DNA from: Limnochordia bacterium
Lineage (GTDB): Bacteria; Bacillota; Limnochordia; DTU080
Length of the DNA stretch: 64,000 bases
Direction: 5' to 3'
Assembly: GCA_050951545.1 (NCBI GenBank)
Contig: JBMNJG010000013.1
Coordinates: 1 to 64,000, forward strand
This document shows, one piece after another, positions 7,907-59,633 of the stretch. The number at the start of each line of letters is the position of its first letter. Within the stretch, counting starts at the first letter, position 1. Under the pieces are notes generated by a model. The model did no database searches and had not been told where the DNA came from. It was given only the letters and a program-made list of their open reading frames with translations. The translations under genes were made by a program, and so were the position numbers.

Positions 7907-8821
7907 TCAGCTTTCCTCCCTTGGCTCATCTTTGTAGTAAGCTAGGAATGTTTCCTCCAGCGACAGGCGTTCGGTTTGGAGGTCACTCACAGGAAAGGCA
8001 GCGAGGGCCTTGATTAACGGGTCAATCTCTCCCTCCACCTGAAGAGTAACCTGCAGGCCGTTATGCTGCTCAAGCAAAGAGATACCTTCCACTCTCAGTA
8101 GCGGTCCGATATCAACCTGCTCACGGAAACGCAGCCAGATCTGACGCAGGGACATGCTGATGAGCTGGCGGGGTTCGGCTTCTTCGACAACAACACCCTG
8201 TCGGATGATCGCTACCCTCCCGGCGATAGCTTCCACCTCGCTGATGACATGGGACGAGAAGAAGACAGTGGCACCGTCAGCTTTGGCTTCTTTGAGCAAG
8301 CGGTAGACCTCCTGTTGCATGAGCGGGTCTAGGCCGCTAGTCGGTTCGTCTAGGAGCAGCAGTTCGGGTCGAGCCATAAGCGCCTGGACCAGGCCCACCT
8401 TCTGTCTGTTGCCTTTGGAGAGATTCTTGATGGGTGCGGTAGGATCCAGCTTCAGGCGTTGCGTGAGCTGGTCAACAAACTTCCAGTCGCTCTTGTTACC
8501 GCGCAGGTCATCAAAATAGCGCAGTGCTTGTATGACAGTCAAGTTGCCCTCAAAATGGAGCTCACCAGGGAGGTAGCCTATGAGAGCGCGTACCGCCACA
8601 GGGTCTTTCGTAGGGTCAATCCCGAGGACCCGCATGTTTCCTGACTGGGGCCGGATCAGGTCCAGTAGGCAACGTATGGTCGTGGTCTTCCCGGCGCCAT
8701 TGGGGCCAAGAAAGCCCAGGATCTCACCGCACTTGACTTCCAGGTTCAGACCTCGTAGAGCCTGTACCTTCCCATAGGCTTTGGTGAGATCCGTTATCTC
8801 GATAGCCAAGGGACTCTTCAT
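7907..8821 (-). CDS. ABC exporter ATP-binding protein
   Basis: Walker A GPNGAGKTT, signature LSKGNRQK, Walker B LLLLDEPT, SSH. Confidence 0.95.
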   Translation of the reverse strand: MKSPLAIEITDLTKAYGKVQALRGLNLEVKCGEILGFLGPNGAGKTTTIRCLLDLIRPQSGNMRVLGIDPTKDPVAVRALIGYLPGELHFEGNLTVIQALRYFDDLRGNKSDWKFVDQLTQRLKLDPTAPIKNLSKGNRQKVGLVQALMARPELLLLDEPTSGLDPLMQQEVYRLLKEAKADGATVFFSSHVISEVEAIAGRVAIIRQGVVVEEAEPRQLISMSLRQIWLRFREQVDIGPLLRVEGISLLEQHNGLQVTLQVEGEIDPLIKALAAFPVSDLQTERLSLEETFLAYYKDEPREES

Positions 8822-9069
8822 CTGACCGCCTCTTTCAATCATAGGCAACTGCGAGAGGGCAGCGTCGTCTCAAGTATACCATTGCGAAGGAACATATTGG
8901 CCGAAAGTAACGGTGGACTACACATCCTCGTATGAGGCAAACACTGCGTTGTCAGCAGAGCATTCAGCATGCAATCGAAGGGAAAACACTGAGCACGTCG
9001 AAAGCGGCCACGCCAGTACTGTGACTGCTGCCTATGGGGAAACGACTCGACTGTAAAGGGGCTAGATTC

Positions 9070-19908: not shown

Positions 19909-20300
19909 GCGACACGCACAGGCAGGTGGTGTGCAGACGGCAGTTTGGCAATCTCTTGCGCCGTTTGGAGGGGGTGCTTCGAACGCTCACTCTTTTCCCG
20001 AGAAGAGGGTTTTCTGCATTCCGGGGGTTGGCCCCTACCGCGGCCGCGCACCATCGCGAAGAAAACAACTGCGTGCCCAACTAGATAACAGCCAGAAACA
20101 ACGAATAAATGAATCAATGGATGTCTTTGGTCGGGGCTGTGGAGTCTGTGGGCAACTCATGGAGGAGTTGTCCATCAGAATCCATGGCCCGCAGCTTGGG
20201 GTCTGGATCGATGGCAGGTTTTTGGTGAGCGCGCTGTTTTGCCGGCCTAGCTTACCGTGAGCTTTCTAGGCCATTTTGGTAGGGTCGAAGTGAAGCGTAT

Positions 20301-20897
20301 CCAACCCGGTGAACGGCTGGGCGCTGGACATGGGGAAAGACCATCGATGGCGTCGCGTTATGTGCAGTCCACTGGTCGGGGTGCGGCTTTTGAGGTGGGG
20401 AAACAGCGATTTGGGGGGCAGATCCGCCGTTTTCGTGGGTTGAGTCCGCCGAAAGTGGTCCGAGAGGGCGCCATCGCTGCGCATTGACCACGTTTGTCGG
20501 CTCCAGGGCTCCAGGGTCATCTGTCGCCGCCCGCCGCCTCCCGCCCCGCCCACCCGATGGACGGCTGGGCCTGGACATGGGAAAGCCATCGATGGCGTCG
20601 CGTTATTACAGTCCGCTGGTCGGGGGGCGGCTTTTGAGGTGGGGAAACAGCGCATGCCGTCCCTGGGGGGCAAATCCGCCGTCTCAGCCCACCCGATGGA
20701 CGGCTGGGCGCTGGACATGGGAAAGCCATCGATGGCGTCGCGTTATTACAGTCCGCTGGTCGGGGGCGGCTTTTGAGGTGGGGAAACAGCGATTTGGGGG
20801 GCAAATCGCCGTTTTCGTGGGTTGCGTCCGCCGAAGGTGGTCCGAGAGGGCGCCATCGCTGCGCATTGACCACGTTTGTCGGCTCCAGGGGTCCAGG
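20301..20897. repeat. Array of three long imperfect tandem repeats (A 20301-20515, B 20548-20682, C 20687-20897)
   Basis: Shared blocks ACGGCTGGGC.CTGGACATGGG, CCATCGATGGCGTCGCGTTAT, GGCTTTTGAGGTGGGGAAACAGCG; A and C also share a ~95-bp tail ending GGCTCCAGGG. Confidence 0.95.
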
Positions 20898-20999
20898 TGG
20901 TGCCAGCGTGTCGCCTTATGATGTACAAAGGAGCGCGACTTGCCCGCTCAGCCCACCCACCGGGTGACTAGGCCGCTTGACACAGGGAAGGAACGGTGA

Positions 21000-21021
21000 T
21001 GCTATCCGGTTATGTGCTGTG
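21000..21021. repeat. Direct repeat flanking HTH-nuclease gene 1 (downstream copy)
   Basis: TGCTATCCGGTTATGTGCTGTG vs TGTTGTCCGGTTATATGCTGTG at 22309-22330 (19/22). Confidence 0.75.
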
Positions 21022-21135
21022 TGAAGCAGGACTGAAGGGTTACCAGAGCGTGGAACGACGTTTCTAGACGCTCCTACTCCTAGGTGAGGAGACGCATCTT
21101 CAGTGGTTTCGCCTCAGCGAAGGGGGCCCCGCGGA

Positions 21136-22191
21136 CTAAGCTTGTGGTGTTTCCGTAGATCCACTGGGCGCCCAGCCGTGCTTGGCCTGCTCGCGGTACC
21201 GCCGGCACCTGGGCTTGAGAAGCCGGAACAGCTTCCGGTTGATGCGTACGTCGCGCCGCAGCGGCAGTCGTCTGCCAATCTTCTTCTTGATCGTCTCCCA
21301 CGAGAGCTCGCGGGACTGGATCACGATCAACTCTATGTCCTCCTCGGCACAGGTCTGCTCCTTTGTCTGGTCACGCTTCTGCTGCTCAAGCACTTGCTCA
21401 GCTGAGTAGAGCTTCGTGACACCGTAGTGTTGCGGACCATTAAACTCGAAGGCCGTATAATGAAGATAGTAGAAGAGATCCAACTCCAGCCTCTGACCGG
21501 TGTCGGGGTTCTCCAGGAAAGGGGGGCGGATGCGGGGCGTGTAATGCTGAGAGTCCACAAGAGCAGTGCAGATGCCTGTCATAAGTGCTTCCCCGTAATA
21601 CTCAGCCGTGTCGAGTTTGTGCTGTATGCGCCACACTTCTTCGCTGTGCTTCTTATCGATCGGGTTGAGGAGGGTAAAGCGAATCACGGCCTGTTTGTGT
21701 GGCTGCTCCATCTCGAGCCAGCTCAGTTTGGCTAATCGCCGCACCGCATGTTTTACGGTCTGAGGGCTCAGATGCATCAGCTCGGCGAGCTCAGAGTATT
21801 TGAACTGCCGCAGACGATACTCCGGATCGTCTTTGCCTACAAGTACTGCATAGACGACTTTGGCCTGGGGGTTGAGTTGGGTGGCCATGATCAGCTCGAC
21901 CGGAATCTGAAGCCAGCCAGGGGGCAACCACTGCTCTGATAGTTTATTCATGAGCCGAACGGTTGCCAAAACAAACCGCTCCTCGCTGAGCAGTCTGGCC
22001 ACAGCCTTGCGAACGGTCGATCGCGACATGCCCGTGCGCCGTGCCAGGCGGCTGGGCGAATAGAGAAACGCCTCGTCCAAATGAGCATCCATAGCCAAGG
22101 CCATCCAGACCACTTTTTCGCTAGCTCTCAAATCGCCAGCGCAAAGTATCGAATCAGGCACACGCGCTTCATCTATATGCAGGGAATACAA
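21136..22191 (-). CDS. Tandem winged-HTH + C-terminal PD-(D/E)XK/DUF559-like endonuclease (paralog 1)
   Basis: RBS GAGGTGA + TTG 22191; two HTH repeats (SPSRLARRTGMSRSTVRKAVARL; YSELAELMHLSPQTVKHAVRRL); nuclease motif LELDLFY..AFEFNGPQHY..QQKRDQTK. Confidence 0.8.
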   Translation of the reverse strand: MYSLHIDEARVPDSILCAGDLRASEKVVWMALAMDAHLDEAFLYSPSRLARRTGMSRSTVRKAVARLLSEERFVLATVRLMNKLSEQWLPPGWLQIPVELIMATQLNPQAKVVYAVLVGKDDPEYRLRQFKYSELAELMHLSPQTVKHAVRRLAKLSWLEMEQPHKQAVIRFTLLNPIDKKHSEEVWRIQHKLDTAEYYGEALMTGICTALVDSQHYTPRIRPPFLENPDTGQRLELDLFYYLHYTAFEFNGPQHYGVTKLYSAEQVLEQQKRDQTKEQTCAEEDIELIVIQSRELSWETIKKKIGRRLPLRRDVRINRKLFRLLKPRCRRYREQAKHGWAPSGSTETPQA

Positions 22192-22212
22192 GAAACTCAC
22201 CTCACATAACCT

Positions 22213-22226
22213 GGAACACATGTTCG
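22213..22226. promoter_or_regulatory. LexA/DinR (SOS) box
   Basis: CGAACATGTGTTCC on the minus strand = GAAC-N4-GTTC, ~10 bp upstream of the RBS. Confidence 0.75.
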
Positions 22227-22308
22227 CCCCGTTGTGACTTCTTTCTACCCGACCAAGCAGGATCCTGCCTTCTCGTGCAAAAAAGCTAACTTCACCAAAT
22301 ATCGACAT

Positions 22309-22330
22309 TGTTGTCCGGTTATATGCTGTG
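22309..22330. repeat. Direct repeat flanking HTH-nuclease gene 1 (upstream copy)
   Basis: Matches 21000-21021. Confidence 0.75.
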
Positions 22331-22436
22331 CGCCAGTCCATGCCGAAAACATCGTTCGTCCTGTTGTGCTCGGCCGAAAGAGTGGGCCATCCGCAAATAC
22401 CCCTGCAACCCATAGGCCGGAACGGGAGACATCGCT

Positions 22437-23130
22437 GTGCATGAAACTGAGCGAGACTATGAGCGACTAGCTGCACGTTTCTGGAACCTACCGCAAAAGG
22501 GCGAAGAAGAAGCCCGACGCGAGCAGTTTTTTATGGACGACATCATCCAGAAGGCTCACCTTGACCGCGAGGTGGAACGGTTAGTAGGCGGAGTCGACAC
22601 CGCTTTTGACGGCGGCGCGGGAGTTGGCCAAGGAAGCTGGAGTTGAAGACAGAATGAGTCCCAAGCATACGCAGTTGCTCACTGAGCTCGTTCGGATAGC
22701 TAGGAAAGCGGTGGTTGTGAGTGTGTCAAGTTGTCTAGGGAGCTTGCCGTACTTTCTCAACCCTATACAGAAACAGCACTACATTATGGATGAAGGTACG
22801 AGTGATCCCCTAGTTCACTGGTACGTACGCAACGAAACCAAGCAGCTTGAGGCATGGAGGCCTGACTTCGAAGCCATGAGCAATTTCCTTGTGACGGGGT
22901 TACCGAATGACCCGGACGAACTCTATGAGCGCATGGAGCTTGGCGAGGCTCCGTGGCCAATTCATTACTGCTTTCTGCCAGACGAGATCAGATCGGTATT
23001 GGAGACTGCTGGATTGAGAGACGTCAAGCTTTCAGGACCGGGTGCGTTAGCCAGATCCATTCCTCGGGAGATTCTGCAGAGGCTTCTTCTAACTCCCGAA
23101 TACCGAAAGCGCTTCCTCGACCAGGTCTGA
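22437..23130 (+). pseudogene. Class I SAM methyltransferase, frameshifted and internally deleted
   Basis: AFDGGAGVG motif I in one frame; LTELVRIARKAV..EIRSVLETAGL in the next; motifs II-IV largely missing. Confidence 0.6.
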
Positions 23131-33736: not shown

Positions 33737-34203
33737 CTGACCTAGGCAATCGAACACTTGCGCGATCCCTGCAAAACTGGTATCATCGAGACGCAACTGA
33801 CCACCATTGGCGCGCCAGGGCATGCACTGAGTAGCGCGCCGATGATGAAGATGAGTGCTGGGATCACTTGGAAGAGAAGCCAGCGGAGACTGATGAGTCG
33901 TCGTTTTACCTCGGCGAGACAGACAATCTAGGGTATCCGGTGAGCCTGGAAGGTAGCGAGATAGTCATCAGGTCGGGAATGTTGTCGTTTGGCTTCATGT
34001 GCTTTCTGGCCCCCTCTGCGGAGGAGGTTCTGGATTGCGGGCCTCTTGATCAGCCCATGTACGATTTCGCAAGCAAGTTCATCAAGTCCTAGGGTGCTGG
34101 GGCAATGCAGGCGATCGCAGTCCTCGGGCGCCACGCCCTCCGCGGTTGGCCTTCCTGGGGTGCAACTCACTTTAGGGGTAGACGGGAACGATCAACAGCG
34201 CAC

Positions 34204-34418
34204 TTATGCTGTAGCTGAGATGCGGGTACGGCGTCACCAGCGTTCGTTTCGGGAACGTGTCTTGGGGGCCTACCGACGCCAGCGTGCGTTCTGTAGGTTG
34301 CGACACGACGAGCTACTGGATGCTGCTCATGTCGTGCCTGATGCCCATGGCGAGGGCGAGCCCATCGTGCAAAATGGTCTGGCCTCGTGTAGCCTTCACC
34401 ACAGAGCTTTCGATAGGG
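34204..34418 (+). pseudogene. Diverged fragment of an HNH endonuclease gene (paralog of 52371-52585)
   Basis: YAVAEMRVRRHQRSFRERVL..LLDAAHVVPD..NGLASCSLHHRAFDR. Confidence 0.9.
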
Positions 34419-34623
34419 ATTCTATGGAAGTCACGTGCCATGCGGAATTCTGTGCGGCAGTGCAGTGTGTAGGGCCTTACAGTCTAGCGAAAGCCATTTC
34501 GCATCGGGGGCGGGCCGCCTTTGCTGGGGCGGCCCGTTCCAAATCGAGTCCACACTGGTGGGCTTACCTCGCGCCTCTGAGTGGTACTCTGCTAGCATGG
34601 CATCGCCTATACCTTGGACATCG

Positions 34624-34714
34624 TCAATAATCGACTTCGGCACGGACGCGCCTCATGAACCATTCGCTAAAGAAGGCCGGAAGATCTGTACGTCTGCTCG
34701 CTGAGATGATCAAC
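34624..34714 (-). pseudogene. DUF1848 N-terminal remnant
   Basis: LIISASRRTDLPAFFSEWFMRRVR matches the DUF1848 N-terminus; stops after ~30 codons. Confidence 0.7.
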
Positions 34715-39515: not shown

Positions 39516-39868
39516 AGAGCCTTGTTGACCATTTGGTAGCCCGCCAGACTGCCGCAGTACCATAGACTGGGGGATAGCACTGGAATCATGAATCTGATCC
39601 ATATAGATAGGGACAACCGAATGCAGCGAGCGTGGCGGATTCTCAAAGGACTCGGCCTATCGACTTCCGCTATGGAGCACGTTGGAAGCCACTCAAGCGA
39701 ATTGACCATGCGTCTACACTCGCAGGTCTACTGACGGAATAGGCATTTGCGTAACCATCAGCAGGAAATGGACCCTGTGGGCGAGCCAGGCGTATCCAGT
39801 TGGCCAAACCTAGCGTACTGTGAGGAGAGATCGAGATAGACTCGCAAAGACTTATCGACAGACCCGCA

Positions 39869-40447
39869 TTGCTTGAAGTACTTTCTGAGATCCTGCCAAG
39901 GCTTCAAGCGGTCCTTGGACAGAGCGATTACAGGTTGGTTGGGACTGCTGCGGCCCTGCTTCACGGCTGCGAACTGCCCGTAGGGGATGTTGACTTTCTT
40001 ATGCGAGAACGAGACCACGTTGATGCGTTTGCAGATGCATTGTCTACTCACAACTGCTTAGTCGAGCCGACGTTCCTGCAGTGGTCACCACCGCCCCGTG
40101 AAACAGGTCAGTATTGGTGCCGCTACGATGCTCACGGAATCTGTGTTGAGGCAAGCACAGTGGAGGCAACTACAGAGTCCGACTGCATTGAGGTGATTGG
40201 ATCAGGGCCATGGACTCACTATGTCAGCATAAAGGCAGGTGTGCATCTCTTGCCTACCGTCCGGATTGAACTCAGACTGGCCACCGAACTCAGTCGTAAT
40301 CGAGTACAGAAGTATGAACCGATCGTTGACTGGATGACCAAGAGCGGTTGCGATCTGAGTCTAGTGAAACGAGCTATGAACGCCTGTCGGGTGCCAGCGG
40401 AACGGCAGCGCGATGTCATGTTGAGGCTTACAGGCGTTGCATCGTGA
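39869..40447 (+). CDS. Nucleotidyltransferase-fold hypothetical protein
   Basis: YRLVGTAAALLHG..VGDVDFL; start uncertain. Confidence 0.7.
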   Translation: MLEVLSEILPRLQAVLGQSDYRLVGTAAALLHGCELPVGDVDFLMRERDHVDAFADALSTHNCLVEPTFLQWSPPPRETGQYWCRYDAHGICVEASTVEATTESDCIEVIGSGPWTHYVSIKAGVHLLPTVRIELRLATELSRNRVQKYEPIVDWMTKSGCDLSLVKRAMNACRVPAERQRDVMLRLTGVAS

Positions 40448-44503: not shown

Positions 44504-44628
44504 ATCGAGATAGACTCGCAAAGCCTCATCGACAGACCCGTATTGCTTGAGGTTCCTTCCGAGATCCTGCCAAGGCTTCAAGTGTCGACACAGTGATTTC
44601 GGGTTAGTTGGGGACTGCTGCGGACCTG
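44504..44628 (+). pseudogene. Degenerate copy of the 5' region of the nucleotidyltransferase-like gene (39830-39958)
   Basis: ATCGAGATAGACTCGCAAAG..GAGATCCTGCCAAGGCTTCAAG..GGGACTGCTGCGG shared. Confidence 0.85.
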
Positions 44629-44630
44629 TC

Positions 44631-45836
44631 TCACGGCCGCGCATCCATCTGTTTCAATGCCTGGATCAGGCTGCTGTAGAGGCTCATGAAACGTGACTCG
44701 TCCAGCGGCTCCACATTGTTCCAAGTGGCGCTAACTGCGAAGAACCTGCCAGACTGGCTCACCAACCATGTCGTCAGGTTGAGCACCCCGGGCTCCGAAC
44801 CGCCTTTGAATGCTATGCGTTGCCAATCGGCAGGATACGCAACACCGGGGTTGATGCTCATGAGCGGCAAATCCTGAACATGGGCCATCAGGTTTACCAA
44901 CTCGCCGACAGAGAAGAACCACTCGACATCCAAGGCCAGAGGGCCGCCGGAGAAGGCGGAGGCATCAGGCAACGGCGCCGCCTGGATGGCGGGTAGCATC
45001 TCTCTTTTGGCTTGCGCATCACTTTGACGGTAAGCGTCGAGTAGGGACTCATTCACAGGATTCTTCAGCGCAAATGCTTCTCGGGTGCTCAAAAAAGGCC
45101 GATTTACCTGGGTATACGCTTCGATGGTTTCTCGACCGACCACATCGATCAGCATGTCGGTCGCTGTGTTGTCACTCATGGATATCATCAATGACGCCAC
45201 TGTCTGAATGGTTAAGGGCGTGCCGATCGGCCAGGCTTGCAGGATGCCGGTAGGCAGGCTGACGTGCTTCTCGGATAGCCTCGCAACTGTGTCCCAGGCT
45301 AGTGCTCCGGAGTTGATCTTGTCTTTCAACGCAGCCAGAATCGCCAGCTTGAACGTGGAGCCTACCGCCAATCGAGCCTCCGGAGCGATAGCGCCCATCA
45401 CGCCAGTGTCGGAGGCGACCAGAACGCTGACTTGGCCCGGCAACTCGGAGAAGCCCGCCAGAGCCTCTTCGAGGTCGGCAACCTTAGTTTGCGGCAAGCC
45501 GAGCCAAAAGCTGGCAATCCGGGCGTTTTCATCCAACACAATCTGCGCAGGAGCAGTGCCTCGGCTGAATACCAGCGTGTACGCTGGCGCTTTTCCTTCG
45601 GCGCACACATAGTCGCCTAATGTGCCCCGATACTGCTGCACAATCACTTCAACTTGAGATACAGGCACCTGGGCAAGAAACGTTGGCGCAAACCAATTGG
45701 CGTCAATGGCGTCCGCCTCGAAAACTTGAGCCAGTCGGTCCTCAGGGGTCACGGCGGCGCCCAGGGCTTGACCGCTGCACATCAGCAATACCGTCAGCAC
45801 TGTAAGTGTGATAGTACGATAGGTCATGGTTACCAT
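44631..45836 (-). CDS. Secreted class A beta-lactamase-like serine hydrolase with N-terminal extra domain
   Basis: Signal peptide; GSTFK, SDN, FKGGSEPG. Confidence 0.88.
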   Translation of the reverse strand: MVTMTYRTITLTVLTVLLMCSGQALGAAVTPEDRLAQVFEADAIDANWFAPTFLAQVPVSQVEVIVQQYRGTLGDYVCAEGKAPAYTLVFSRGTAPAQIVLDENARIASFWLGLPQTKVADLEEALAGFSELPGQVSVLVASDTGVMGAIAPEARLAVGSTFKLAILAALKDKINSGALAWDTVARLSEKHVSLPTGILQAWPIGTPLTIQTVASLMISMSDNTATDMLIDVVGRETIEAYTQVNRPFLSTREAFALKNPVNESLLDAYRQSDAQAKREMLPAIQAAPLPDASAFSGGPLALDVEWFFSVGELVNLMAHVQDLPLMSINPGVAYPADWQRIAFKGGSEPGVLNLTTWLVSQSGRFFAVSATWNNVEPLDESRFMSLYSSLIQALKQMDARP

Positions 45837-51846: not shown

Positions 51847-52779
51847 ATGGCCGAGATCGTGGAAGATGCGCGTGTTCGCTCTGCAGCGTTTTCGTGGTTG
51901 GCCAAGCAGACAGAGAAGCATGGCGATGTGCTTCCACGCAGTCTGCTTGCGACTGGCTTCGAACTCGACGGGCAGCGCGTTCACCTAGTTGGTCCACAAG
52001 GCATCTTCAAACCGAAGGTGCTGGATGAGTTGCCACTATCGATCACGACTGCTCCTGGTGGCCGCTATGATGATGCATTCGATGCCAACGGGCTCTTGCG
52101 GTACCGCTATCGCGGTTCTGATCCGGATCATCCTGACAACCGCCGCCTTCGGTTGGCATGGCGCCGTGGTGTGCCGCTGATCTACTTTCATGGCATCGTT
52201 CCTGGGAAGTACTTAGCCGCTTGGCCTGTGTACATAGTTGGCGACGACCCCTCGGGTCTATATGTTACGGTTGTACTTGAGCAACCGAACTACTTCGACA
52301 TAGCTGACGGGGCTGCAGACTTGGCTGGGGCTTTGGGTGGAGCTGACTTGGCCAGGGAAGCTGGTCGCAGTTACGCTACAGCTCAGATGCGGGTACGACT
52401 CCATCAGCGTTCGTTTCGGGAACGTGTCCTGGAGGCGTATCGACGACAATGCGCGTTCTGCAGATTTCGACACGAGGAGCTGCTGGATGCTGCTCACATC
52501 GTGCCTGATGCCCACAGCGAAGGCGAGCCGATTGTACAGAATGGTTTGGCTCTGTGCAGTCTTCACCACAGAGCCTTCGACAGGCATTTCATAGGAGTCA
52601 CGCCAGATTACCGCATTGAGGTGCGGCCAGACATTCTGGAGGAGAGCGACGGCCCAACGTTAGTTCACGGTTTTCAGGTGCTCCACGGGAAGAGGATCCT
52701 ACTGCCGAGAGCTTCGAAGCTATGGCCTGATCGCGATCTCTTGTCGAAGCGGCATGAGGAGTTTCGGGCGGCCGTGTAG
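51847..52779 (+). CDS. HNH endonuclease with SRA-like N-terminal domain (putative type IV restriction enzyme)
   Basis: GIFKP, YDD..LRYRYRG, DN..L; CAFC..LDAAHI..NGLALCSLHHRAFD; RBS GGGAGG. Confidence 0.85.
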   Translation: MAEIVEDARVRSAAFSWLAKQTEKHGDVLPRSLLATGFELDGQRVHLVGPQGIFKPKVLDELPLSITTAPGGRYDDAFDANGLLRYRYRGSDPDHPDNRRLRLAWRRGVPLIYFHGIVPGKYLAAWPVYIVGDDPSGLYVTVVLEQPNYFDIADGAADLAGALGGADLAREAGRSYATAQMRVRLHQRSFRERVLEAYRRQCAFCRFRHEELLDAAHIVPDAHSEGEPIVQNGLALCSLHHRAFDRHFIGVTPDYRIEVRPDILEESDGPTLVHGFQVLHGKRILLPRASKLWPDRDLLSKRHEEFRAAV

Positions 52780-55115: not shown

Positions 55116-55559
55116 TCACTGGTCTCGCTGCTGTTCCAGATATGCGTTAACATGTTGGGCGAATTCAACAAAATCGTCGAGTTGTTCCGTAAGTACGCGG
55201 TGCACCTCTCTCAGATCGACTGCGGTGTATTCGTGGACAAGGATGTTCCGAAAGCCTGCCATCGGCGCCATCCGTTCGGCGAATGCCTTGGGCAGAATAC
55301 CCAATGGGGCCAGGGCTGAGATATTGTCGCGATATCGATCGGGAACTGGGCCCCCGAGCGAGGCTACACAGTGCGACGCCACATCCAGCACTGACTGAAC
55401 GCAGAGTTGCAGGCCGTGCTGGACCGCCCAGTACACTTTTGGACTGGCCGCCAGTTCATCCAGCGTCATTCCTCGGTACTCCCTGAGCACCTGCACGGCA
55501 TCAATCAGGTACGTCAAGCGCCGCTCAATCACGCCGCGGTCAGGCATGGCCCCGGTCAT
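55116..55559 (-). CDS. HepT-like DUF86/HEPN ribonuclease toxin
   Basis: GFRNILVHEY (R-x4-H); overlaps the upstream antitoxin stop. Confidence 0.9.
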   Translation of the reverse strand: MTGAMPDRGVIERRLTYLIDAVQVLREYRGMTLDELAASPKVYWAVQHGLQLCVQSVLDVASHCVASLGGPVPDRYRDNISALAPLGILPKAFAERMAPMAGFRNILVHEYTAVDLREVHRVLTEQLDDFVEFAQHVNAYLEQQRDQ

Positions 55560-56029
55560 GGCTGTTCACCTCGTCTCGGCCGCAGGGCGGCCAGTTGTCG
55601 TTGCAGACGGGCGGCTTGAAGGTTGCGCAGTGGTCGGGTATCCTCGTACTCTTGGAAGGCCCTAATGGTGAACTCCGCAATCACTTCCATATTGACAGCG
55701 TAGAGAACATGCCCGTCGCGAACCACGCGATGCAAAAGCAGCGGTGGTGCGCCGTTCAGGATGACCACGTCAACGTCGGGGCGTTCCCATATGCTCATCA
55801 TGTCCAAAACGAGTTGTGGGCGGTTTACTCGGGCTTCCACCCCGCCTCGGGTGAGAAGAACGCCCAGGTCGAGGTCGCTATCAGGACGTGCCTCGCCCCG
55901 GGCCAGCGAACCAAAAAGGAATACTGCCGCGATCTCAGGCCGTTGAGAGAAGTACCTTCTCAGTTGTGTCATTTTTCCGGTGGAAAACACGGCCTCGGGT
56001 GCACCTCCTAGCCCTCGCCTCTTCGGCAT
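55556..56029 (-). CDS. MntA-like minimal nucleotidyltransferase antitoxin
   Basis: FLFGSLARGEARPDSDLDLGV (GS-x10-DxD), VDVVILN; start uncertain. Confidence 0.88.
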   Translation of the reverse strand: MPKRRGLGGAPEAVFSTGKMTQLRRYFSQRPEIAAVFLFGSLARGEARPDSDLDLGVLLTRGGVEARVNRPQLVLDMMSIWERPDVDVVILNGAPPLLLHRVVRDGHVLYAVNMEVIAEFTIRAFQEYEDTRPLRNLQAARLQRQLAALRPRRGEQP

Positions 56030-56313
56030 GACGCCCGTGCTGTCTTATTCTGGCCCCCGCCTCACTCGTGACCTCACTGTGATTCGTTCTCTGTTGACAG
56101 TCACTCTTCCTTGGCGGCGTGTTCTCGAAAAACCCACGACAGTCAGCTCTCCTGCCTGAGGGCCGAGGACGAGTATGAAAATGGTGACTCGTGGCCACAG
56201 GGTAGTCTTTCCCTCGTAGATCAGGTACAGTTGGCACATGATTCGCGTTCCACGCGTGGAGGTTGAGACGTGGGCGAACAAGCAGTCCCTGTAACCTAGG
56301 CCCGTACGCAAAC

Positions 56314-56620
56314 GGGCGATCTCACCAGTTTGGCCTCCATCAGTCCCGGACCCGGCTGGTGAGTCGGGGCCCGGGGCCGGTTACATTGCCCAAATCGGCA
56401 AGAAGAGGGTGATGCTCACTGGTTTCACTTCCGTCAGTCCCGGACCCGGCTGGTGAGTCGGGGCCCGGGGTCGGTTACATTGCCCAAATCGGCAAGAAGG
56501 GGGCGATGCTCACTGGTTTCACTTCCATCAGTCCCGGACCCTGCTGGTGAGTCGGGGCCCGGGCCGGTTACATCACCCAAATCGGCAAGAAGTGGGCGAT
56601 GCTCCAGTTTCATCTTCGAT
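56314..56620. repeat. Tandem array of three ~94-bp structured repeats plus a partial fourth
   Basis: Units start at 56321, 56415, 56509, 56602; core CAGTCCCGGACCC.GCTGGTGAGTCGGGGCCCGGG..CGGTTACAT..CCCAAATCGGCAAGAAG. Confidence 0.95.
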
Positions 56621-56889
56621 CACAGGAGGCCGACCAGGCGACGAGGCGGGTTCTGGGCAGGGCAAGATGGCTATTGGGCGGAACATTGTGATTTCGAGGC
56701 GGTTACAGCCGGAAGCGGGGCGCCCGTTGGCGCACCACTGGTCTGCTATTGTCACGACTTGTGCCGAGGGCACCTGGCGAGGGCATAGGGGCACCCGCTC
56801 TAGCGAGCGGCAGCGAGAGGTTGCTGAAACCCCTACTGTGAAGGGGGACAGATGATTCGAGGCTATGGCGCACTCTTGGCCGTCGTTGG

Positions 56890-57918
56890 CTACTCGCTGG
56901 CGGCATCACTGGCGGGCGCCCAGCCACCCTTAGCCGTCTCGCGGTAGAAGCGGCTCCTCAGATCGAGGTACCTGAGGAGTTTCTTGTTAAGGTCGCTTCG
57001 CAACGGCAGCAGTTGGCCAGCCTTGAACTTCATGGTGAGCCAGGACAGGTCCTTGGCATGGATCACAACCAACGTGACGTTGTTCTTCTCACACAATTCA
57101 CGCTTGGTCTTGTCACGTTCCATCTGCTTGGCGACCACGTCAGCCGAGAACCGTTTGGTAGGGGTGTAGTGCTGTGGCCCGTTAAACTCAAAAGCCACCG
57201 CCTCGAGGTCATAGTGGCGGTCGAGCTCCAGTAACATGCCAGTAGCCGGGTTGACTAGAAAACGGGGAGACGCGTTGTCTTTGTGGTCATCGGAGTCGAA
57301 AATAGCCGATAGGTATTCCTGCATCAAGGCCTGTCCGAAGAACTCAGCCTCGTCGAGTCGCTGCTGCGCCGCTAGCAGTTCATCCATGTACCTGCGGGCG
57401 ACCGGGTTGCAGAGGCTGAAGCAAATGGGAGCCTGCTTGTGCTCTTGCTGCATCTCCAGCCAGCCCAGCTTGGCCAGTTGTCGAGCAGCCCGCTTGACCG
57501 TCTTGGCACCTAGACTCATCATCCGAGCCACAGACGCATATGTGAACACGCCCTGCAAATTACGGTAATCCGGCGTGGCCTGCAGTGCACCATAGACCAC
57601 CTTGGCCTGAGCACTGACTTCGGTGGCGATGATCAGCTCAGTAGGCATGACCACTCTTGGCCCCGACAGCTCTTTTGCTGGGGCCTGGTTGACGCCTGTG
57701 GGCAGACTGTACCAGCCCTTAGTGGTTAGCTTTGCCGTAGCCTTGCGGACGGTGGGTCGGGACAAACCGGTACGAGCAGCCAGGCGAGTGGGCGATAGAC
57801 GAGCTCGCTCCCCCAACTCAGCGTCGAGTGTGAGGGCCAGCCAGACTACCTTATCCGTCGCTCTTAACTGGCTAGTGAGCAGCAACGAGATCGGCACGCG
57901 AACCTCTTCGATATCCAA
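56890..57918 (-). CDS. Tandem winged-HTH + PD-(D/E)XK/DUF559-like endonuclease (paralog 2)
   Basis: RBS GGAGGTGG + TTG 57918; HTH repeats SPTRLAARTGLSRPTVRKA and YASVARMMSLGAKTVKRAARQL; LELDRHY..AFEFNGPQHY..QMERDKTK; colinear with 21136-22191. Confidence 0.82.
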   Translation of the reverse strand: MDIEEVRVPISLLLTSQLRATDKVVWLALTLDAELGERARLSPTRLAARTGLSRPTVRKATAKLTTKGWYSLPTGVNQAPAKELSGPRVVMPTELIIATEVSAQAKVVYGALQATPDYRNLQGVFTYASVARMMSLGAKTVKRAARQLAKLGWLEMQQEHKQAPICFSLCNPVARRYMDELLAAQQRLDEAEFFGQALMQEYLSAIFDSDDHKDNASPRFLVNPATGMLLELDRHYDLEAVAFEFNGPQHYTPTKRFSADVVAKQMERDKTKRELCEKNNVTLVVIHAKDLSWLTMKFKAGQLLPLRSDLNKKLLRYLDLRSRFYRETAKGGWAPASDAASE

Positions 57919-57935
57919 GGGCGCCACCTCCAGCC

Positions 57936-57968
57936 AGAATGTCTGTTCGGGTCCCGAATACATGTTCG
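57936..57968. promoter_or_regulatory. Two adjacent LexA/DinR-like boxes
   Basis: Minus strand CGAACATGTATTCG (57955-57968) and CGAACAGACATTCT (57936-57949), directly upstream of the RBS. Confidence 0.68.
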
Positions 57969-58159
57969 GCACACTCCGGTAGAGTTCCTCCATCAAAAGG
58001 TCGATTCAGACAAGACCAGAGGCGGCGTGCACCCAGCTCTTCAAAGCGAGGCGCGCTGATGCACGCGTTTTCCGGTCGTGATGGGTCGCATCTGGGTAGG
58101 ACAGTGCTAGCCCGCCGCGGTGACCAGTGCCGTCCTGCCAAGGTAGACCAGTGCACACA

Positions 58160-58209
58160 CCAGTTACATCACCCGATTCGGCAAGAAGCGGTCGATGATC
58201 ACTGATCTC
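58160..58209. repeat. Degenerate half-copy of the 94-bp unit upstream of paralog 2
   Basis: CCAGTTACATCACCCGATTCGGCAAGAAGCGGTCGATGATCACTG vs array CCGGTTACATCACCCAAATCGGCAAGAAGTGGGCGATGCTC. Confidence 0.85.
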
Positions 58210-58550
58210 GTGGGCCCACATGGGCACGATGTTGATCGGAGATGCCAGCGGCCTTCAGTTGTCATCCGGAGAAGATGCCTGCGACTTCTCTCGGTGTTTG
58301 CCGTTCGTGACAAGGTGGCTTCTTGCGCGTAGGGTGCAAACACCGACCGCCGTTGCCTCGACTTCTGTGTGTCGTTGGCCGCCCACATGCCTATTGCCCA
58401 GGGTACCGAGACTTGACGCAGGCCCGTGAGCCGAGTCTGAGCATCGGGTTGTATGGTATAGTAGATCGAGATGGTAGCGGTTGATGGGGGAGTGCTGTGT
58501 ACACAGATTATGTCGAATGTGACCGCTAAATACGTGGAGAGGCCGATCAC

Positions 58551-58934
58551 TTGTTGTCTGCACTCGGGCTACATGGGATCCTATCACATTACGGTTTCCC
58601 CCGGGTGACAGGCAGCTACGCGCTGAGGCTGATGACCTGGAGAGACTTGGATATACCTCGTGAGCGATCAGATGTCGGTCTTGTCGTTCTTTGGCTTGGT
58701 GGTCGCCTGGTGGAATGCCTATCCCCAGTGAGGATGCACTACAGGAACGAACGCCTGGCGAGGACGCAGGGCCTGCCGAACGGGCTGTATTGCGGGATCT
58801 ACCTTGGAGACGAGCGGGCAGGAGCGTGGAAGATCGGTATACGGGCGGTGGACTCGAGGGAGTGTGATCGTCTCACAGCGTTCATCGATTCGATAGCGGG
58901 CCGTCTTACACCCAAGTTACGACATCGAATTTAG
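58551..58934 (+). pseudogene. Nucleotidyltransferase-like gene remnant
   Basis: VTGSYALRLMTWRDLDI motif; no clear start; short. Confidence 0.55.
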
Positions 58935-58946
58935 GAGGCCGTACCA

Positions 58947-59633
58947 ATGGCAAACGCCAGTTTCTCTCAGGTAATGGGTAGCATCCAGGGGGCGTTTGAC
59001 TCAGTTCTGCAGCCTAAGGGTTTTCAGGCGCATGAGTATACGTATAACCGGGGCATGGAGGATGGCCTCATCCAGGTGGTCGACATTCAGCTATACCCGT
59101 CGAAGCTTCCGTATCCTGGTTGGGAGAAGTATCGTGCTCGGTTCACGATCAACTTGGGCGTCTATGTTCCCGAGGTAGGTGAGCACTACAGTGCTACCCT
59201 GGCGCAGACCCCGTGGGTTAAGGAGAGCGGCTTAGTTGTAGCACCGCTGGAGCCTTGGGTGCTTGACATCCAGTGCGCTCTGCGGGAACGGATTGGCCAC
59301 GTATCAGAGGATGCTAAAGACATCTGGTGGCCCCTCCGTGAAGACGAGATGATTATCGAGGATGCTCTTTATTACCTTCAGACCTACGGGATTCCCTTTG
59401 TTGAGCACTGGTCCAGTCGAGACAGGATACTGGAGAACTGGGATGAGAACACAGCTAGAGGCATGAACCTGGCACCCAATGTTGTGAAAGCGATCATCTT
59501 GTCAGAAAGGGGCGACATGGAGTCTGCTCGGGTACTGCTGGCGGAGCATGTGCACGAGCTGGATAGTCCGGATTCCGAACACTTTTTTCGGAGGCTCGCC
59601 AAGAGACTGGGGATTTGGAGGCTAGACGGCTAA
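58947..59633 (+). CDS. DUF4304-like hypothetical protein
   Basis: RBS AGGAGG; LQPKGF, IQVVDIQ, FTINLGVY, RERIG, DIWW. Confidence 0.7.
   Translation: MANASFSQVMGSIQGAFDSVLQPKGFQAHEYTYNRGMEDGLIQVVDIQLYPSKLPYPGWEKYRARFTINLGVYVPEVGEHYSATLAQTPWVKESGLVVAPLEPWVLDIQCALRERIGHVSEDAKDIWWPLREDEMIIEDALYYLQTYGIPFVEHWSSRDRILENWDENTARGMNLAPNVVKAIILSERGDMESARVLLAEHVHELDSPDSEHFFRRLAKRLGIWRLDG

Follow-up and report, generated by a model that had tools for sequence, protein, structure and literature searches.

The window analysed here, the 64-kb stretch at positions 1 to 64 000 of contig JBMNJG010000013.1 from a Limnochordia bacterium (assembly GCA_050951545.1; 3.64 Mb in 16 contigs), contains at locus 2 a single gene for a predicted DNA-binding nuclease, lying between a tandem array and a partial copy of the same repeat. 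On balance, locus 2 is probably a copy of an autonomous, selfish mobile element that is SOS-controlled and driven by its nuclease acting at modules in the element ends. The ~1.9-kb unit behaves as a transposon: it occupies many unrelated sites, has sharp limits and a patchy distribution, and its only gene is under purifying selection. With neither a known transposition enzyme nor the usual end structure, it is best read as an element of an undescribed kind; the literature on EDxHD homing endonucleases, SOS regulons and Limnochordia repeats, judged at the level of titles and abstracts, does not describe it.

An array and a half-unit are the two ends of a multicopy unit

The sole tandem array of the window, detected with Tandem Repeats Finder (TRF), has a period of 94 bp, 3.1 copies and 90% matches, and lies on the 3′ side of the gene (Table 1). 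A repeat search of the window placed a fourth, direct copy of the last part of the 94-bp unit, here called the half-unit, on the 5′ side of the gene at 58160–58200 (85% identity over 41 nt). The original prediction, made from the window sequence, had described just this pairing of a downstream 3 × 94-bp array with a direct upstream half-unit. Each 94-bp unit consists of a G+C-rich hairpin spacer and a ~45-nt module; the module carries the core GGTTACAT and contains an inverted repeat of 8 bp.

A blastn search of the genome with 55800–58800 revealed six other copies at 93–95% DNA identity to the window copy, which together with it make up family A. Homology among the seven is limited to 56310–56375 on one side and 58120–58211 on the other, with unrelated flanks beyond in every case. 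These limits fall at the repeats, so that a ~1.9-kb unit is delimited by the array at one end and by the half-unit at the other, which bears out the earlier suggestion that the direct repeats could be element ends. The layout of array plus half-unit recurs in all seven copies and is therefore not due to chance; the 94-bp unit is confined to these seven places in the assembly, and the ~1.9-kb unit holds no second gene. Array length varies among the seven (Table 1), and two of them carry 12-nt microsatellite expansions.

Twenty-eight gene copies form four families, three of them with repeats of their own

A six-frame search of the assembly returned 33 matches, representing 28 gene copies and two small fragments, and clustering of the DNA resolved four families: A with 7 copies (including locus 2), B with 4 (including a second window locus, locus 1), C with 15 and D with 2. 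Proteins of the four families are ~49% identical to one another. For the two window loci, BLASTP gave 48% identity over 347 residues (E 1e-104) between the locus-2 protein and that of locus 1 (21136–22476, minus strand), in an alignment that runs, as had been claimed, from end to end save for an N-terminal extension. The reading frame is open in 25 of the 28 copies (A 6/7, B 4/4, C 13/15, D 2/2), and pairwise ratios of nonsynonymous to synonymous substitution rates (dN/dS) are 0.23 for A (15 pairs), 0.24 for B (6 pairs) and 0.17 for C (78 pairs): purifying selection continued to act on the protein as the copies spread. Every copy occupies an unrelated intergenic site of a chromosomal contig, flanked by ordinary genes.

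That each paralog carries its own repeat family was part of the original prediction, and repeat type does follow protein clade. Family A has its 94-bp units downstream of the gene. Family B has a compound array, also downstream, with periods of ~140 and ~262 bp, and its gene is bracketed by a direct 22-nt repeat. In family C, 2 to >5 units of ~405 bp stand upstream of the gene, each with 21-bp iteron-like sub-repeats, and a short derivative holding the common core lies downstream in 5 of the 15 copies. Neither a tandem array (by TRF) nor a bracketing repeat was found in family D. That repeats differ from one lineage to the next is most simply explained if they travel with the gene; joint movement as one element, with the paralogs as element lineages and not host paralogs, is the better explanation.

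We compared the repeats with a FastTree protein tree of the 25 intact proteins of the genome and 115 database homologues. The 25 group together to the exclusion of the database homologues (support 97), and their branching order is (A,(D,(B,C))). The modules of A, B and C carry a core 8-mer, A[CT][AG]TAACC, on the gene strand, its occurrence on the opposite strand being very rare. The stretch common to the B and C sites is longer than what either has in common with A, a likeness that parallels the protein tree. The pattern, with only three informative families, fits co-evolution of protein and site. The original interpretation is thus partly supported: repeat type follows clade in this genome, whereas bracketing of the gene is not general among homologues elsewhere.

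Remnants of the family were also noted, namely part of a family-B array fused to the final ~290 nt of the gene (contig 4, 35754–36165) and short gene fragments at 159654–159833 of contig 6 and 189527–189709 of contig 12. Ten tRNA genes lie within the 1.5-kb flanks of 5 of the 28 copies (loci L002, L006, L011, L019 and L021), two family-A copies adjoin different tRNA-Arg genes, and promoter-like TTGAC motifs occur 10–60 nt beyond several family-C ends; the element may thus prefer the regions that precede promoters or tRNA genes.

One end is fixed and the other varies

The gene-5′ end of family A is nearly fixed, with the likeness to the unit stopping 8–17 nt past the GATG of the module in all seven copies. 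The array-side end varies: it falls inside a module in the window copy, and at the start of the module or within the hairpin spacer in three further copies. The original description of locus 2 needs one correction here, as the window array starts inside a conserved module, the outermost two thirds of which are absent although present in the other six copies. Three family-A copies (contigs 16, 5 and 6; not that of the window) have, before the array, a diverged second copy of the segment ‘P’ that precedes the gene-proximal module, and so a direct terminal repeat of ~75–110 nt. In family C, 10 of 14 copies begin, at the gene-5′ end where the array lies, with one 48-nt leader followed by the last ~128 nt of a unit, and the gene-3′ tail is a mosaic of alternative segments. 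Families A and C are alike in this respect, both having a fixed end upstream of the gene and a variable one downstream. No inverted pair joins the two element ends.

Several smaller rearrangements touch the repeats. Some family-A array units (in the window at 56377–56604, and on other contigs) show an in-place inversion, in which the module 9-mer CCAAATCGG is replaced by its reverse complement CCGATTTGG between short inverted flanks, a hint of hairpin-mediated template switching. The alternative 3′ tails of family C, 60–110 nt past the stop codon, are swapped at a recurring GCCGCTGGC motif; its complement also occurs 45 nt to the right of the window element (58249–58257), which may be chance. 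A 344-nt repeat at 19960–20303 adjoins the outer end of the locus-1 array. Further copies, 98–99% identical, are found on contig 14 and within two arrays of family C (contig 7, 70981–71323; contig 11, 344586–344818, truncated at one end), and each of the two family-D genes has related pieces of 60–80 nt upstream. The 344-nt repeat appears to be a small relative without a gene, recently mobile and inserting in or next to the arrays.

The protein combines initiator-like winged helices with a predicted Vsr-type nuclease

Pfam recognizes only winged-helix models in the locus-2 protein (HTH_36 twice), and no NCBIfam model scores above its cut-off. An AlphaFold2 model built from 41 sequences (mean predicted local distance difference test score, pLDDT, of 89) was compared with 48 161 chains in VIA-align. 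Residues 26–198 resemble the iteron-bound Pi initiator (2nra_C; Z 8.1, 163 residues aligned), with a further match to RepE54 (template modelling, TM, score 0.44–0.46). Residues 215–332 resemble Vsr (1cw0_A; Z 8.2, root-mean-square deviation (rmsd) 3.1, 107 aligned), the catalytic domain of I-Bth0305I (3r3p_B; Z 8.2, rmsd 2.8, 93 of 98) and 3hrl_A (Z 7.5). Foldseek, run with the whole model against the PDB, gave no match at E ≤ 0.001, and a family-profile sequence search of solved structures returned weak winged-helix regulators only, with no nuclease among them.

Sequence matches agree with the fold assignments. PHROG replication-initiator families match the second winged helix (E 1e-8 for locus 2, 1.7e-10 for locus 1), and the C-terminus is hit by phrog_9084, a PHROG family annotated as ‘homing endonuclease’ (E 1.8e-7). 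The ‘homing nuclease’ ORF194 of Bacillus phage 0305phi8-36 is 31.7% identical (E 2e-6, tblastn), the phage matches covering the nuclease domain only. A DUF559 cluster was suggested only by a weak language-model lead (score 0.83). PADLOC defence models gave weak matches restricted to the helix–turn–helix region (mad1, E 5e-5 and 0.009; a CARF model, E 0.006). None of the transposase catalytic families (DDE, HUH, serine, tyrosine) appeared in Pfam and NCBIfam scans at E ≤ 1; the matches named after transposases were sub-threshold and confined to helix–turn–helix models, namely IS21 (NCBIfam, 15 bits against a cut-off of 160) and HTH_Tnp_ISL3 (Pfam, E 0.17).

Across the 41 sequences, E222 is conserved in at least 90% and D259, H276 and D295 are invariant, while N272, four residues before H276, is N or H throughout the family (pattern AFEF[NH]GxQH). 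The active site of I-Bth0305I comprises E170, D196, N208, H213 and D222 (PMC3239194). These residues correspond in that order to E222, D259, N272, H276 and D295, in a mapping made from the aligned ranges rather than by residue-level superposition. Since all five catalytic positions are kept, the nuclease is probably active.

A LexA-type box points to SOS control

In 27 of the 28 copies, representing all four families, the conserved coding region has at its 5′ end a palindrome with at most one mismatch to CGAAC-N4-GTTCG; 134 such sites occur genome-wide. The host lexA gene itself has three boxes within ~150 nt upstream, one of them perfect, and none was found in the 350 nt upstream of recA. Among homologue loci of other genomes, 13 of 64 carry the box in the equivalent 170-nt window, where 0.4 would be expected. 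These motifs suggest that the element gene is LexA-controlled and hence SOS-controlled. RNA sequencing runs contained just 6–16% of the words of the DNA stretch. A public catalogue places the start of the locus-2 protein at residue 12 (ATG at 57961–57963), which the box overlaps. We considered and rejected a start codon inside the box as a general rule: it holds for families A and B only, the ATG within the family-C box being out of frame, and in most family-C copies the start codon lies 14–23 nt past the box.

The family is patchily distributed among relatives

A family search at E ≤ 0.001, in which 8,000 candidates were scored, recovered at least 166 family proteins, unnamed or labelled ‘helix-turn-helix’, ‘ArsR’ or ‘hypothetical’. 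All 166 come from Bacillota, Limnochordia and Symbiobacteriaceae metagenome-assembled genomes. A full HMMER scan gave 388 clusters (50% identity) at E ≤ 1e-30 and 1868 at E ≤ 1e-10. In GTDB species genomes, 139 homologue loci were confirmed, often many per genome, of which 80 were kept. Tandem repeats with a period of at least 30 lie within 700 bp of the gene at 22 of these 80 loci (24 arrays versus 8.0 expected from the remainder of the same loci, P ~4e-6); their periods all differ, and they occur on either side of the gene. A unit copy across the gene from the array was rare in other genomes (3 weak cases in 22 loci). Paralogues in these genomes are older (75–83% DNA identity), with homology mostly limited to the coding region.

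Thirteen of 40 relatives have the family (14 of 41 genomes with our own). Two genomes of the same genus, 95% and 91% complete, have no member at E ≤ 1e-10. At the tRNA-Arg locus that holds the contig-16 copy, both have ~78 nt where our genome has ~2.3 kb including the element, and the flanking genes and the tRNA-Arg are kept. For the window locus, a search by DNA in 30 relatives gave no empty site, and the flanks were not found in the same-genus genomes. In Logan contigs from four metagenome runs of four studies, depth within the unit exceeded that of the flanks 5–10-fold, in keeping with a repeat, and one run showed a joint going back 95 bases within the array, which fits variation in copy number. 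The presence/absence polymorphism anticipated at these loci was thus seen at genus level, for the contig-16 copy only, but not at the window locus in the four metagenomes. The expected product of excision, an array unit joined to the half-unit end, was not found in the contigs of the four runs, which miss rare forms.

Alternative explanations

The unit could in principle be an integrated mini-replicon, with a genuine initiator protein and arrays that serve as iteron origins, a circle being formed by recombination of the direct terminal repeats and then re-integrated. The tandem winged helices do resemble the iteron-bound Pi and RepE, the PHROG initiator families match at E 1e-8 to 2e-10, the modules are directly repeated and accompanied by 21-bp sub-repeats, and homologous recombination of direct terminal repeats, a redundancy of ~75–110 nt being present in 3 of the 7 copies, would give a circle. 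We nevertheless think this unlikely: 72,556 plasmid records held no match at E ≤ 1e-5, every copy sits in a chromosomal contig among ordinary genes, the contigs of the four runs, in which rare forms are missed, held no circle junction, the array periods of 94–405 bp far exceed iteron spacing, and the conserved nuclease domain would go unexplained. Unlike the outcome of random re-integration of a circle, one end is also fixed within ~10 nt in all seven copies. Nor do we give much credence to a non-autonomous cassette, moved by an enzyme encoded elsewhere and carrying the nuclease as cargo, for instance as an SOS-induced toxin or an addiction or competition factor. Each of the four ~49%-identical families retains its gene under purifying selection with its own, differing repeats, a joint retention that is expected if protein and ends work together; in addition, the PADLOC matches are weak and limited to the helix–turn–helix region, and the direct-repeat ends are unlike the inverted ends of IS21-type elements. 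Such a cassette would account for a protein without known strand-transfer chemistry, the genome does encode enzymes of other mobile elements (for example the IS21-like genes on contig 14), and the gene-less 344-nt repeat, which appears mobile too, lands in or beside the arrays.

An SOS-induced, site-specific nuclease or regulator of the host, expanded by ordinary duplication and accompanied by incidental repeats, seems to us very improbable, because the limits of homology are the repeats in all seven family-A copies with unrelated flanks, the genome has 28 copies against none in two genomes of the same genus, and arrays are three-fold enriched beside the gene across 80 loci. It would agree with the greater age of paralogues elsewhere (75–83% DNA identity, homology mostly in the coding region), with the usual absence of bracketing repeats in other genomes and with LexA boxes common to several of them. 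The original prediction had further entertained a guide scaffold, that is, transcription of the array into an RNA that guides the protein. Although each unit has two hairpin-capable segments and the repeats are family-specific, we regard this as scarcely tenable. An Rfam scan of 55500–59000 at E ≤ 1 gave only a chance-level animal microRNA match outside the array (20.7 bits versus a gathering score of 80, E 0.7); a scan of 56200–58400 for sigma-70 promoters and terminators found none upstream of the gene and none at the array; among 20 units judged by eye, no convincing compensatory changes were seen in the unit hairpin. The folds are those of double-stranded-DNA binders and a DNA nuclease, and the family-C array lies upstream of the gene, not downstream.

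Several observations weigh against an autonomous, nuclease-driven element as well. No movement was observed, and nuclease activity, DNA binding and LexA control are predictions. The fold scores, at Z ~8, are borderline by the note of VIA-align itself, and are supported by the agreement of the PHROG and ORF194 sequence matches; the Pfam models for DUF559 (PF04480) and Vsr gave no match at E ≤ 1. No target-site duplication was seen in the seven family-A junction pairs, the array-side boundary of which varies, and no target motif could be defined from the junctions. Bracketing direct repeats are absent for most homologues outside the genome and the core 8-mer is not enriched beside them (gene strand, 2/80 loci upstream and 2/80 downstream); the end structure may be special to this lineage. 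The empty site of the contig-16 copy is too diverged for base-exact junctions, and searches at two further copies gave no empty site, one locus being rearranged in the relative and the other matched only through tRNAs and scattered, non-syntenic stretches. The element occupies the window locus in all four metagenomes, with flank contigs running in to 56369 and out from 58112–58163, and the contigs of these runs hold neither an empty-site nor a circle joint there. Flanks of at least two other copies (5a and 5b on contig 5) appear as loose ends in the metagenome contigs, so those insertions also look old and fixed, and the 5–7% DNA divergence among family-A copies indicates that the last bursts were not recent. 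To our knowledge, moreover, a Vsr-type nuclease has no way to join DNA, and host functions must therefore be invoked.

Comparison with known systems

EDxHD homing endonucleases reside in introns, inteins or phage genomes and home into one cognate allele via flanking homology. With I-Bth0305I and ORF194 the element protein shares the nuclease fold, the five catalytic positions, a separate N-terminal DNA-binding region and the logic of a selfish gene. It differs in that the element is found at 28 unrelated intergenic chromosomal sites, with repeat ends and an array of its own. The DNA-binding part of these enzymes is of the NUMOD type (PMC3239194). Unlike these, the element protein is predicted to bind DNA through two winged helices, and its only Pfam matches are to HTH_36 and winged-helix models.

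Iteron initiators (Pi of R6K, RepE of mini-F, phage O-like proteins, HTH_36) have two tandem winged helices in the same mutual arrangement, and their genes likewise lie beside directly repeated sites. They lack the nuclease domain, however, and are found on plasmids and phages, whereas the element family has no match in plasmid records; iterons are ~20 bp, against element periods of 94, ~140/262 and ~405 bp, and 21-bp sub-repeats occur in family C only.

Classical insertion sequences are similarly discrete multicopy units with defined ends, but the element has no transposase family and has direct-repeat ends in place of terminal inverted repeats. IS91/ISCR elements and Helitrons use an HUH tyrosine transposase that binds DNA covalently. 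They resemble the element in having no terminal inverted repeats and two functionally different ends, one fixed and one variable; unlike them, the element encodes no transposase family above cut-off, and its ends are direct repeats of one module. REP13E12 of mycobacteria and the Rpn/YhgA PD-(D/E)xK proteins of E. coli are multicopy chromosomal nuclease genes that look mobile or recombination-promoting without a classical transposase. The likeness lies in the several chromosomal copies of a nuclease gene, while nuclease fold and domain make-up differ; we know of no tandem array or module repeats in either.

Proposed mechanism

The unit with its ends and copy number, the folds of its protein, the conservation of the catalytic positions, the LexA-type boxes and the purifying selection on the gene are shown; the route of movement that follows is a proposal. 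To judge by the sequence motifs, LexA would repress the gene, and DNA damage would lift the repression. The winged helices, given their fold and the family-specific repeats, would bind the modules of their own family as Rep proteins bind iterons. The nuclease would then nick or cut beside the single gene-proximal module, the end of fixed position, and host repair or replication could copy the element from this end through the gene into the array. Insertion of the copy at a new site would leave a variable junction on the side of the array, which would offer several points for stopping or pairing and change in length by slippage. Movement would most likely be a copy primed at the fixed, gene-proximal end.

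We put forward more tentatively, as a possibility that we hold doubtful, that prokaryotes have a new class of transposable elements, of which this one is the first representative. In this class, SOS-induced, initiator-like binding and Vsr-type nicking, with no DDE, HUH, serine or tyrosine enzyme, would prime a one-ended replicative copy that ends in a module array, and protein and end modules would co-diversify into mutually exclusive lineages within one genome.

Features and neighbours in the window

The coordinates of the two elements and their parts are collected in Table 1. Directly to the left of the locus-2 element is a toxin–antitoxin-type pair (55116–56029), composed of a HepT-like ribonuclease (E 1e-29) and a Polbeta-type nucleotidyltransferase (E 2e-18). 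Elsewhere in the window, two genes with HNH_2 endonuclease domains (33989–34630 and 51847–52779) share a 237-nt stretch at 81% identity (34199–34435 and 52366–52602), and there are two more pairs of dispersed direct repeats, of 80–110 nt and ~90% identical (2269–2377 with 8691–8828, and 39830–39971 with 44504–44641).

Table 1. Positions of the locus-2 and locus-1 elements and their parts in the 64-kb window
Feature	Position	Strand	Remarks
Whole family-A element copy (locus 2), ~1.9 kb	56314–58204	minus	blastn against own genome; right boundary uncertain by ~10 nt
Tandem array, 3.1 × 94 bp, gene-3′ end of element	56314–56604		TRF; copy number 2.5–4.6 among the 7 copies
Conserved non-coding spacer, array to stop codon	56605–56889		Aligned in all 7 copies; no Rfam match
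Gene with two winged-helix domains and a predicted Vsr/EDxHD-like nuclease	56890–57996	minus	368 aa from TTG
LexA (Cheo-type) box-like palindrome	57955–57968		1 mismatch to CGAAC-N4-GTTCG; overlaps residue-12 ATG
Sub-terminal segment ‘P’ upstream of gene	58080–58159		Alignment of left and right ends
Half-unit, a single module in direct orientation, gene-5′ end of element	58160–58204		Kept at the same place in 7/7 copies
Family-B element copy (locus 1)	20301–22338	minus	Array 20301–20915; gene 21136–22231 or longer
LexA-like box of locus 1	22213–22226
Direct 22-nt repeats of locus 1	21000–21021 and 22309–22330

Significance

If the nuclease drives its spread, the element would add a type of mobile element to the few enzymatic routes by which bacterial DNA is known to move. 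The reading, if true, would also link homing endonucleases, iteron-binding initiators and the SOS response, which are usually studied apart, and would explain a sizeable protein family now labelled only ‘helix-turn-helix’ or ‘hypothetical’. A modular winged-helix nuclease with long, family-specific sites could be of interest to tool builders, and elements of this sort break short-read assemblies of Limnochordia and Symbiobacteriaceae genomes. For the family itself, four co-resident lineages with repeats of their own are a natural system in which to follow the joint change of a DNA-binding nuclease and its site.

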